Below, one piece after another: positions 19,535 to 25,730 of a stretch of DNA of 64,000 nucleotides. The notes beneath the pieces are model-generated. The model did no database searches. It saw nothing but the letters and a program-made list of their open reading frames with translations, and was not told the origin of the DNA. The translations under genes were made by a program, and so were the position numbers. The DNA comes from a virus: positions 1 to 64,000 of the IMG/VR virus record IMGVR_UViG_3300033148_007251, one strand, 5' to 3'. Each line of letters opens with the position of its first letter. Positions within the stretch are counted from its first letter, which is position 1.

Positions 19535-20311
19535 TTATTTAAATTTAGCTCTACTAAGATTAGCTCCACTAAGATTAGCTCTACTAAGGTTAGCTTCACT
19601 AAGGTTAGCTCTACTAAGGTTAGCTTCACTAAGGTTAGCTTCACTAAGGTTAGTCCAACTAAGATCAGCCCAACTAAGATCAACTCTACCAAGGTTAGCT
19701 TCACTAAGATCAGTCCCACTAAGATCAGTCCCACTAAGATCAGCTCTATGAAGATCAGCTCCACTAAGATCAGCTTCACTAAGATCAGTCCCACTAAGAT
19801 CAGCTCTATGAAGATCAGCTCTATGAAGATCAGCTCCACTAAGATCAGCTCTATGAAGATCAGCTCCACTAAGATCGGCTCTATGAAGATCAGCTCCACT
19901 AAGATCGGCTCTATGAAGATCAGCTCCACTAAGATCGGCTCCACTAAGATCGGCCCAACTAAGATCACCCCAACTAAGATCAGTTTCACTAAGGTTAGCC
20001 TTATCAAGGTTAGCCCTACTAAGATCACCCCAACTAAGATCAGTTTCACTAAGGTTAGCCTTATCAAGGTTAGCTTCGTTAAGGTTAATCTTACTAAGAT
20101 CAGCTCTACCAAGGTTAGCTTCACTAAGATCAGTCCCACTAAGATCCGCCCCACTAAGATCCGCCCCACTAAGATCCGTCCCACGAAGATCAGCCCCACT
20201 AAGATCAGCTCTTATTTTAATAGCATTTCTTAGAGTTTTTCTTATTGTTTTTAAATTATCTTCGAATATTATTTTTTGAGTTTTTTTATGTATTATTTTC
20301 ATAATTTTCAT
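19535..20311 (-). CDS. pentapeptide repeat protein
   Basis: About 44 A(D/N)LxX repeats (ADLSG, ADLHR, ANLSE) after a short basic N-terminus; SD AAAGG. Confidence 0.9.
   Translation of the reverse strand: MKIMKIIHKKTQKIIFEDNLKTIRKTLRNAIKIRADLSGADLRGTDLSGADLSGADLSGTDLSEANLGRADLSKINLNEANLDKANLSETDLSWGDLSRANLDKANLSETDLSWGDLSWADLSGADLSGADLHRADLSGADLHRADLSGADLHRADLSGADLHRADLHRADLSGTDLSEADLSGADLHRADLSGTDLSGTDLSEANLGRVDLSWADLSWTNLSEANLSEANLSRANLSEANLSRANLSGANLSRAKFK
19545..20210. repeat. 15-bp tandem repeat array encoding the pentapeptides
   Basis: Degenerate unit ACTAAG(A/G)T(C/T)AGCTCC repeated throughout. Confidence 0.9.
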
Positions 20312-23413: not shown

Positions 23414-23996
23414 GTTATATCTCCTTTTAATTAAATTACAAACTCCAATATGGTTTTTTATTTCAAATTATCCCATAATGTTTTTACCGATATATAATGC
23501 TAACTTATTTAGTGCAAGTAATAGTTGTTTTTTTGTAATTTTATTCCCATTTTTAATACGTTTCATTAACAGCGTCTAATTTATCCATAAGCATTTCGAT
23601 ATGTTTTGTTTTCTGTACTCCTAATATAGATTCAATTGATACGTTTCCATGTAACAGTTGAACTTTATACACTTTATTTTGGGCTAACCATATTTCTTTT
23701 TTTTCGTTTATCATAGCATCCATATTATTTTGTCTCCTTTTTAAGGGTGTTTCGATTTCAAAAATCTATTGCCTGTTTTTATGATTTCAAAAATCTACTT
23801 AATGTTCCGTTTTAGGTACGTATTACAATTCTTACAATGAAAACCCAACATATTCTTTTTGATAGCCATAGATAAACAATCATCATACTTTCCACAGCAT
23901 ATGTATCTGTTATTAGCGACATCACGTGCATACATAATACCACATTCTGTTATTGTTTTAATTGCTTTGGTCATTGTTTTTTTCTCCTTATATTTA

Positions 23997-24269
23997 TTAT
24001 ATATATGGGATGTTTTGAGTTAACCATTTTTTGAGTTTTTTTTTACCCGTAAACGTTAGGTCTAATGTATTATATAACATTATTACATCTTCATATGATG
24101 CAATGATCATTTCATGTACCGCATCATAATAATGGGGTTCATTATCATATCTTTGATATCTCACTCTATAAAATAGAGGGTTTGGAATTATTTTTAATCT
24201 AATTTGGAAGTTGTCACCTTTTAATTTTGTGTTGTGTATACTTTTGTTTTGCAATATCAATATTTCCAT
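23997..24269 (-). CDS. hypothetical protein directly downstream of hammerhead 1
   Basis: SD GGGAGGTGA right after the ribozyme. Confidence 0.6.
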   Translation of the reverse strand: MEILILQNKSIHNTKLKGDNFQIRLKIIPNPLFYRVRYQRYDNEPHYYDAVHEMIIASYEDVIMLYNTLDLTFTGKKKLKKWLTQNIPYI

Positions 24270-24290
24270 TTTAATATCACCTCCCTATAA

Positions 24291-24344
24291 AGTGTTTCGA
24301 TCTTTAAGATCTCATCAGTGACAGTCACATAACAGCCAGACACT
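24291..24344 (-). ncRNA. hammerhead ribozyme, type III (copy 1)
   Basis: RNA reads AGUGUC^UGGCUGUUAUGUGACUGUCA-CUGAUGA-GAUCU(UAA)AGAUC-GAA-ACACU. Full catalytic core, stems I/II/III and a GUC cleavage triplet; predicted cut between 24339 and 24338. Confidence 0.9.
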
Positions 24345-24391
24345 AAGAGCAGTTTAATGACTTGCTGAGGTCATTATATTAGATTGTAATG

Positions 24392-24559
24392 TTACTGAAT
24401 AATTTTTGCTGCCCAATCTGGAACATCCACTTCTTTGCCAGATTTATTTGTAATTTTATAATATCTACCATTATTGCCAATCTCAATGGTAGCACTATAA
24501 ATTTCTTTTTTTGTAATTCCCAACCAGCTTATTAATGTATCTGTTATTATGATTTTCAT
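24392..24559 (-). CDS. 55-aa hypothetical protein between the two hammerheads
   Basis: MKIIITDTLISWLGITKKEIYSATIEIGNNGRYYKITNKSGKEVDVPDWAAKIIQ; SD AAGGAGGAG; below the ORF-track cutoff. Confidence 0.7.
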   Translation of the reverse strand: MKIIITDTLISWLGITKKEIYSATIEIGNNGRYYKITNKSGKEVDVPDWAAKIIQ

Positions 24560-24578
24560 AATGCTCCTCCTTTTTAAT

Positions 24579-24632
24579 AATGTTTCGATTTATAAAATCT
24601 CATCAGTAACAGTAATATAACTGTTAGACACT
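24579..24632 (-). ncRNA. hammerhead ribozyme, type III (copy 2)
   Basis: RNA reads AGUGUC^UAACAGU(UAUAUU)ACUGUUA-CUGAUGA-GAUUU(UAU)AAAUC-GAA-ACAUU; predicted cut between 24627 and 24626. Confidence 0.92.
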
Positions 24633-24852
24633 AAGAGCATCCATTAGCTTGCCTTATATAATAAGGTAGAGGCATCCTGGTATGTCCATTCGGTTCTCAA
24701 TGCTGTTAGGTTTTTAGTAACCCTGCATGATGGAGTCCTTGACTATTTGTCGAGGCGTCTATTTTTTTATTTCAAACAAGATGTTTTTTAATGGGTTTAC
24801 TTGCTGGCACCGTTTCCCGTGTGCCTCTTGTTTGTTCTTGTTTATATAGTAC

Positions 24853-24868
24853 TGCAAACCGTGTGCCA
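24853..24868 (-). promoter_or_regulatory. sigma-54 (-24/-12) promoter
   Basis: TGGCAC-ACGGT-TTGCA matches the TGGCAC-N5-TTGCW consensus; intergenic and pointing into the hammerhead operon. Confidence 0.8.
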
Positions 24869-25010
24869 TGTTGTTAAATAAATCGTAATAAATATTAAAA
24901 GTAATGTAAGTTACTTAAATTATTATGTATATATTTTATCAAGATAATTTAAATACCTTTTGTTTATTGTAAATTTAGCTATTTTAGATACATTTAAAAT
25001 TGGACTGGAC

Positions 25011-25107
25011 TGGACAGTCATACACTTTTGTAAATATTTATAATAGAATCAATATATTATAAGATGAATACTCTAAATCATACACTCCTGGACAGTCGTA
25101 CACTTTT
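25011..25107. repeat. 19-bp direct repeat pair (candidate enhancer/UAS)
   Basis: TGGACAGTCATACACTTTT at 25011-25029 and TGGACAGTCGTACACTTTT at 25089-25107, plus partial copies. Confidence 0.6.
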
Positions 25108-25115
25108 TAACCCTA

Positions 25116-25487
25116 TTATAGATCCTCAAACCATATAATTTTTTTCTTATCTACTATGTTAGGTTTAATATCTTGTTTTGACTTAGGTTTAAATATTGGT
25201 GTTTCAATAGGCTGTGTGTCAATAATGGCCCGTGGTATATATTCTACATAATCATTAATATATTCTTTTATTTGATTTACTGGCCAAAACCACTCCCCTC
25301 TAATGTGATATGTGGCAAAGCTTCTGTGCAACTCTTGTTCAAATCCTATATCTCCATCAATAGCTTTGATTATAGTTAATTGTTCCCATGAACCCGTTTG
25401 TAATTGTTTTAGTCTATCATTTATATCTCTACTTGTGTACCCGATTTTAATTGGCCCTGATGTCCCACTTTGTATAAAGTATATCAT
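25116..25487 (-). CDS. GIY-YIG T5orf172/MUG113-like protein
   Basis: MIYFIQ....GPIKIGYT.....RLKQLQTG...EQELH..F....IRGEWF. Confidence 0.82.
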   Translation of the reverse strand: MIYFIQSGTSGPIKIGYTSRDINDRLKQLQTGSWEQLTIIKAIDGDIGFEQELHRSFATYHIRGEWFWPVNQIKEYINDYVEYIPRAIIDTQPIETPIFKPKSKQDIKPNIVDKKKIIWFEDL

Positions 25488-25714: not shown

Positions 25715-25730
25715 AGCAAGATTAATGCCA
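25715..25730 (-). promoter_or_regulatory. sigma-54 (-24/-12) promoter (second)
   Basis: TGGCAT-TAATC-TTGCT with correct GG-N10-GC spacing, about 50 nt before an SD/ATG. Confidence 0.7.

Follow-up and report, generated by a model that had tools for sequence, protein, structure and literature searches.

Two predicted type III hammerhead ribozymes bracket a single small gene in a phage operon

Here we describe two apparently intact, co-oriented type III hammerheads, A and B, which are predicted from their sequence to cleave themselves and which enclose one 55-aa gene in a leftward phage operon made up of small genes. The predicted cuts fall after C24627 and after C24339, exactly 288 nt apart, in agreement with the preliminary description of this DNA, where two hammerheads were said to bracket a 288-nt unit with a single 55-aa gene. 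We consider it probable that A and B are cis-acting type III hammerheads that work as 5'-UTR processing modules of this operon.

The locus comes from an uncultured phage whose IMG/VR record is 75,279 bp long and has direct terminal repeats (DTR). The stretch analysed here (hereafter, the window) is the initial 64 kb of it, with a GC content of 33.6%. A terminase is present, and its large subunit is about 53% identical to the counterparts of Marinitoga and Clostridium phages. The closest relatives of this large terminase (TerL) were just 55% identical, and the loci of those relatives carried no hammerhead. Blastn of the locus against the INPHARED phages gave no match, and no related locus was found when viral and metagenome contigs were searched with the 55-aa protein, the 90-aa protein encoded after it, alignment A1 and the homologue P0003. 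A tRNA search of the window found none. On the minus strand, a run of small ORFs extends from about 25700 down to about 20800. Further along the same strand we observed a gene for a 258-aa pentapeptide-repeat protein (19535-20311) made of A/T-D-L-S-G units and encoded by 44 copies of a 15-nt repeat; it could be a protein of the DNA-mimic type.

Hammerhead A occupies 54 nt of the minus strand (24632..24579), with the predicted cut between 24627 and 24626. It opens with the 5' strand of stem III, AGUGU (24632..24628), and the cleavage-site nucleotide C24627, which are followed by a stem I of seven perfect base pairs with a 6-nt loop, the core CUGAUGA, a stem II formed by GAUUU and AAAUC, the GAAA element and the 3' strand of stem III, ACAUU (24583..24579). 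Hammerhead B, also 54 nt on the minus strand (24344..24291) and with the predicted cut between 24339 and 24338, repeats this order: AGUGU (24344..24340), C24339, a stem I in which six of seven positions pair and the remaining one is a U-U mismatch, CUGAUGA, a stem II of GAUCU and AGAUC, GAAA, and ACACU (24295..24291). Stem II consists of 5 bp and a 3-nt loop in both copies, and stem III of 5 bp in both, one of them G-U in A. In each case loops cap stems I and II and stem III is left open, which is the type III architecture. The invariant core is complete in A and in B (C3 U4 G5 A6 N7 G8 A9, G12 A13 A14, the A15.1-U16.1 pair and a non-G at position 17), and both copies read GUC/...CUGAUGA G...C GAAA C, where the slash marks the cut. 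The preliminary description had pointed out that the same sequence precedes both ribozymes; indeed, the window contains TGCTCTTAGTGTC at the two cut sites and nowhere else.

Several searches support the assignment. The pattern CTGATGAG-N(6-30)-CGAAAC matched twice, against no match in 100 shuffles, and these two matches are the only ones in the whole 75,279-bp genome. The Rfam model RF00008 (Hammerhead_3) scored A and B at 35.5 and 28.6 bits (E = 1.8e-7 and 1.5e-5 per genome), and neither copy reached its gathering threshold of 48.5 bits. At the gathering score, the well-formed phage type III hammerheads of the contigs L231, L245, L246, L202 and L203 also went unreported, which suggests that this threshold is conservative for the phage type III subclass; hence, we regard the sub-threshold scores as weak counter-evidence. 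For a covariance model (R1) we used 30 distinct hammerheads, all taken from other phage contigs and none from the window. It gave 43.5 bits for copy A (E = 7.6e-11) and 47.7 bits for copy B (E = 4.4e-12), similar to what other phage hammerheads reach. These scores are in part built in, because the training set was fished with a pattern derived from A and B, although the stems are not. Over the 64-kb window, R1 returned no further match at E <= 10. Loop I of the two copies starts with UAU, as in the R1 consensus, loop II has just 3 nt and the stems are AU-rich; no contact between loops I and II, of the tertiary kind on which activity at physiological Mg2+ and fast cleavage in vivo depend, could be derived from two sequences.

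The differences between the two copies are informative. Nine of 59 positions differ, and all nine lie outside the core and outside the 5' strand of stem III. Two base pairs have changed in a compensatory manner, A-U becoming G-C in stem I and U-A becoming C-G in stem II; of the single changes, one creates a G-U pair, one a U-U mismatch and three fall in loops. Pairing is preserved by five of the six stem substitutions; expressed as helix covariation, and from two sequences only, there are two double changes and one G-U against one disruptive change. As the differences mostly keep the pairing, the fold has been maintained since the duplication. The repeat that A and B have in common is the 59-nt ribozyme module alone, between unrelated flanks. 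Plain minimum free energy (MFE) folding favours a competing helix of CUCUUAGUG with (C/U)ACUGAUGAG (-11.2 and -10.9 kcal/mol, versus -7.5 and -8.6 kcal/mol for the hammerhead). We take this predicted pairing of CUCUUAGUG with the core as a caution about activity and as no evidence of regulation.

A decayed third copy lies further downstream on the minus strand (23734..23767; repeat family D2; blastn-short E = 0.019). It retains the stem II hairpin, CGAAAC and a Shine-Dalgarno (SD) sequence, is 85% identical to copy A, and is without CUGAUGAG and stem I. This remnant precedes a 56-aa ORF (23723..23553), two genes further along the operon. A second copy of its stem II hairpin, AGAUUUUUGAAAUC, was seen 29 nt upstream of it (23734-23806, minus strand).

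Upstream of hammerhead A we identified a sigma-54-type promoter sequence, TGGCACACGGTTTGCA (24853..24868, minus strand), which is the sole exact match to TGGCAC-N5-TTGCW in the window. Judging from this motif, the operon transcript probably starts here, near 24842. The putative transcript would then begin with a non-coding leader of about 216 nt (24627..24842, minus strand), its start being placed from the promoter position and its end reading ...UGCUCUUAGUGUC>p, with the cyclic phosphate at the cut. No ORF was found inside this leader (24627..24842), and its predicted fold reaches an MFE of -46.5 kcal/mol (z = -2.3). If the sigma-54 promoter is used, hammerhead A would trim a structured 216-nt leader and would not cut between two genes.

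Other elements were noticed around this promoter. Two 20-nt direct repeats, CTGGACAGTC[A/G]TACACTTTT, lie 150–250 nt further upstream of the sigma-54 site (25010-25029 and 25088-25107) and could be an enhancer site. A further sigma-54 site with one mismatch is found at 25715-25730 (minus strand), and directly upstream of the promoter region a gene on the same strand (25116-25487) encodes a 123-aa protein with a T5orf172 / MUG113 (GIY-YIG-like) domain. In addition, a near-consensus sigma-70-like promoter, TTGCCA-16-TATAAT (11 of 12 positions), is located antisense inside the 55-aa ORF (24435-24462, plus strand), and about 300 nt downstream of it there is a terminator-like site (24737-24770, plus strand), one of only two in 3.5 kb. 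Together these could give rise to an antisense RNA of about 300 nt over the gene start, the SD and hammerhead A; the fold of this candidate RNA has a z of -2.3.

Since A and B both look intact and are co-oriented, release of a single-gene RNA of 288 nt (24626..24339, between the predicted cuts) is expected. That an SD, an intact ORF and a small hairpin lie inside this unit, as had been noted before, was confirmed. The SD is GGAGG (24566..24570, minus strand), and the 55-aa gene, with its stop codon, covers 24392..24559 on the minus strand, with the ATG at 24559 and the start codon 19 nt after stem III. The hairpin, AAUGAC-CUCAGCAA-GUCAUU (24375..24356, minus strand), has 6 bp and lies 17 nt from the 3' terminus of the released RNA, which it probably protects from exonucleases as a cap; a hairpin of similar kind, CCUUAU-UAU-AUAAGG, is found before hammerhead A. 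Downstream of hammerhead B follows the 90-aa gene (23997..24269, minus strand), with the SD GGGAGG (24285..24280) and a start codon 21 nt after stem III. No family match was obtained for the 90-aa protein in Pfam or PHROG.

The 55-aa protein had no Pfam or PHROG match either, and a word-indexed search found no near relative. An exhaustive HMMER search recovered four short homologues (P0002, P0003, P0006 and P0010; from Logan, JGI and ENA) at 62, 61, 39 and 44% identity. The structure prediction that the preliminary description had suggested was run with AlphaFold2 on the alignment of these homologues, and returned a small SH3-like beta-barrel with a pLDDT of 94.1. Foldseek aligned the model to the Abl SH3 domain with a TM of about 0.72, at a non-significant E of about 0.2. 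Weak matches of the protein to large repeat proteins can be traced to a beta-hairpin motif, local in extent, that it shares with Lamin Tail Domain (LTD) repeats. Because of the homologues and the confident SH3-like model, we take the 55-aa gene as real; the ORF encodes a genuine small protein, with a predicted SH3-like fold.

Our model starts from the observed integrity, position and context of the motifs, and from these we infer cleavage in vivo, the promoter and an effect on stability or translation. Transcription would begin at the sigma-54-type promoter (24868..24853), hammerhead A would cut off the leader of about 216 nt, and hammerhead B would place the 55-aa gene on one RNA and the 90-aa gene, with those that follow, on another. 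After either cut, nearly the whole ribozyme would stay on the downstream RNA, as a compact 5'-hydroxyl leader directly before the ribosome-binding site (RBS), while the upstream RNA would end as a short 2',3'-cyclic-phosphate tail behind a small hairpin. Since cleavage removes the upstream part, the 5' UTR would be standardised. The outcome would be linear single-gene messages whose translation and stability are independent of upstream sequence. This benefit to stability and translation is suggested by analogy with RiboJ, a hammerhead derived from sTRSV that is placed before an RBS as a synthetic insulator.

The position of such hammerheads relative to genes could be compared across a set of 68 viral contigs found by pattern. 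In 43 of 49 distinct phage hammerheads, an ORF of 35 aa or longer, with an SD in front, begins 11–25 nt after stem III (median 18), and the distances of 19 and 21 nt seen after A and B, each with an SD before the start codon, lie within this range. The preliminary description had proposed to compare the ORFs that follow the hammerhead in relatives; in other phages, an SD and a start codon nearly always come straight after it. Tandem pairs detected with R1 are 280–332 nt apart in L054, L050, L017/L034, L018 and L008, and each of them brackets one ORF, of 58–97 aa. In a pattern search, 65 viral loci had two hammerhead cores with a closed stem II 255–285 nt apart, and among these loci there are arrays of type II hammerheads and of twister ribozymes at similar spacing. 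In bacterial genome contigs, the pattern matches were mostly due to chance, with five R1 matches in 80 loci.

Some features of individual contigs deserve mention. L216 carries four type II hammerheads about 300 nt apart, and L224 two twister-P5 ribozymes about 490 nt apart. In the upstream member of the tandem pairs of L017 (376-439, plus strand) and L034 (4388-4451, plus strand), the core UUGAUAAG replaces CUGAUGAG, with U3/A8 in place of the C3-G8 pair; from its sequence, this core looks like a covarying variant and not like decay. We also often saw phage hammerheads of this class coincide with exact gene-swap boundaries.

Previous work has described related arrangements. In prophages, single genes are flanked by clusters of hammerheads, and in the three clusters that were tested every ribozyme cleaves in vitro (Perreault et al. 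2011, PMC3088659). Phage hammerheads have been suggested to process polycistronic transcripts (PMC6765202), and the role of many hammerheads in phage genomes has been described as open (PMC6155905, PMC6765202).

Other explanations of the locus have to be weighed against processing by A and B. One or both motifs might be inactive relics that no longer cleave usefully in vivo, in which case the 288-nt species would be absent. The Rfam scores under the gathering threshold, the U-U mismatch in stem I of copy B, the competing helix that is stabler in silico and the decayed third copy, which indicates that such modules do die in this operon, all point in this direction; however, every invariant core position is intact in A and in B, five of six stem substitutions keep the pairing, and the R1 scores are on a par with those of other phage hammerheads, so that we find this decidedly unlikely. 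Alternatively, the conserved UGCUCUU upstream of each cut might mask the RBS or the core until cleavage, which would make translation dependent on the ribozyme. When its flanks are included, copy A folds best with GAUGCUCUU paired to AGGAGCAUU over the SD, in a duplex of -11.5 kcal/mol that is stronger than 96% of the cross-pairings with unrelated loci, and similar pairing is seen in the L021 family (CCCCCCU with AGGGG) and in L064. For copy B, however, the value is only -5.5 kcal/mol (52nd percentile), and in an excised RNA the identical 3' tail could mask the SD again. Over 57 hammerheads, moreover, a motif's own pairing averages -6.8 kcal/mol against -5.9 kcal/mol for unrelated pairings. 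Masking of this kind is very hard to credit at this locus, and anti-SD masking as a property of the class was rejected, given that no general effect appears across the 57 hammerheads. A further reading, which is unlikely though it deserves attention, is that the hammerhead and the SD form a conserved linker at which homologous recombination swaps, duplicates and deletes small genes, RNA cleavage being secondary. In one variant, cleavage would simply keep each newly inserted gene expressible; this reading as a whole is compatible with the processing model. The marine/environmental contigs L054 (3560-4200, plus strand) and L050 (5080-5720, minus strand) are about 98% identical through both hammerheads, and the identity takes in the SD and the first codons on one side and the stop, 3' hairpin and following gene on the other. 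Between the hammerheads, the 58/59-aa ORF has been exchanged with precision, the replaced part beginning right behind the start codon and reaching the stop, and the encoded proteins are not related to each other. The pairs L015/L016, L019/L055, L021/L028 and L023/L030 share the upstream DNA and the hammerhead (identity 0.92–1.0) and have unrelated ORFs downstream, while L043/L046 is the converse case. With such ORF-precise swaps in several contig pairs, hammerhead modules are often found precisely where mosaic joints lie. Within the window, only the 59-nt module is repeated, between unrelated flanks, and the decayed third copy shares its stem II–GAAAC–SD part. Against recombination as the main role, the compensatory changes argue that the RNA fold itself is under selection, and 59 nt at 85% identity are a poor substrate for recombination. 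Moreover, since mosaic joints fall at gene borders in phages generally, their coincidence with any conserved intergenic element is expected. The modular cassette of hammerhead and gene that had been proposed for this DNA gains comparative support from the ORF-precise swaps in other phages and, in the window itself, from the decayed third copy.

The preliminary description had also proposed a circular RNA, and this idea requires separate consideration. According to it, the 288-nt RNA would close into an exonuclease-resistant circular message for the 55-aa protein, through the reverse reaction of a hammerhead or through host RtcB, after its 3' tail has paired with stem III, and with the SD, of the copy A body. 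Retrozymes and viroid-like RNAs form circles in this way (PMC4918200, PMC7229834). The predicted ends, a 5'-OH and a 2',3'-cyclic phosphate, are chemically right, and the SD and the AUG would stay intact. The geometry is right as well, for the claim that joining the ends rebuilds a complete hammerhead agrees with our prediction: at the junction, ...AGTCATTAAACTGCTCTTAGTGTC would be joined to TAACAGTTATATT, the last 13 nt being identical to unprocessed copy A. The copy B end reads ...AGTCATTAAAC before TGCTCTTAGTGTC, which at the junction meets TAACAGTT. The resulting chimera equals copy A, and the copy B-derived tail ...AGUGUC>p can pair with ACAUU of A. In the predicted fold, GCUCUU of the tail is base-paired to the SD region close to the 5' end, so that the two ends come together. 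Furthermore, stem III is identical between tandem copies with diverged stems I and II in L231, L245, L246 and L054. Yet the shared 13-mer can be explained by the duplication, as ten free positions would be identical in a module about 21% diverged elsewhere with an estimated p of about 0.1, and a predicted hairpin, ACAUUA/UAGUGU, can sequester the 3' tail. The compatibility of stem III within tandem type III pairs is mixed. Both copies have the same stem III in L054/L050, L231/L245 and L246, and cross-pairing reaches 4 of 5 bp in L018, but amounts to only 2–3 bp in L017/L034, L008, L203 and both pairs of L206; about 5 of 10 independent tandem pairs are compatible, against 27% for random pairings, and about half of the pairs in other phages are therefore incompatible. 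A search of the phage genome for RtcB and Rnl2-type ligases found none, and Perreault et al. 2011 (PMC3088659), who considered circular or spliced products of the clusters, detected none. Apart from its geometry, the circular mini-RNA finds no backing here, and we regard it as very unlikely; that a host RtcB-type ligase or the rebuilt hammerhead closes a translatable circle with the UGCUCUU tail on the RBS, and thus a protein-coding circular RNA of a dsDNA phage, seems to us highly improbable. An endless ORF on the circle, the length of which is a multiple of three, was also considered and rejected, since all three frames carry stops; hence, there would be no rolling translation, and the circular topology brings no translational novelty. 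The hammerhead-bounded unit might also be the thing that is exchanged between phages, as the ORF-precise swaps of L054/L050 hint.

Processing of a linear operon transcript by A and B is thus the reading that we prefer, and with a putative promoter, a leader, two apparently intact ribozymes, a decayed copy and tiny genes, the locus is a minimal example and a convenient test case. It could be used to ask whether phage hammerheads act as natural insulators or processing sites, and whether any excised piece circularises. The locus alone adds no new principle, and the comparative by-products, namely the start-codon spacing and the gene-swap boundaries, may be the more useful leads.

Among known systems, RiboJ insulators share with this locus a hammerhead directly upstream of an RBS (here with start codons 19 and 21 nt after stem III) and, on the processing model, the removal of upstream context by cleavage and a structured 5'-OH leader. 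In contrast to them, the hammerheads described here are natural, phage-encoded and repeated in an operon, and have no extra 3' hairpin exposing the SD. Retrozymes and viroid-like RNAs (PMC4918200, PMC7229834, PMC7761336) resemble our unit in having tandem hammerheads, a viroid-like size and ends that an RtcB or tRNA-ligase type enzyme could join, with a hammerhead rebuilt at the junction. Here, however, the unit codes for a protein in a dsDNA phage operon, and the repeat is a 59-nt ribozyme, not a long terminal repeat; there are no long direct repeats, the interior is coding, and there is no context of reverse transcription or RNA replication. Small self-cleaving ribozymes conserved directly before coding regions are also found upstream of ORFs in RNA viruses, where they are used for translation initiation (PMC13725137). 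The closest likeness is with the clustered phage hammerheads (Perreault et al. 2011; PMC6155905, PMC6765202), which share one orientation within a phage or prophage operon and enclose a single small ORF that is not conserved, or in other cases a short gene block, each hammerhead lying immediately before the gene that follows. Polycistronic processing has been proposed as their role, and the idea of circular or spliced products had already been raised for them. The same layout is found here, in a DTR phage with a terminase, two minus-strand hammerheads and one ORFan-like 55-aa gene. The present pair differs in that both members are type III, while type II is commoner in bacteria, in that the first hammerhead would trim the leader of a putative sigma-54 transcript, and in the presence of a decayed third copy. 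Hammerheads flanking single phage genes have been known as a layout since Perreault et al. 2011, and this locus is a further example of it.
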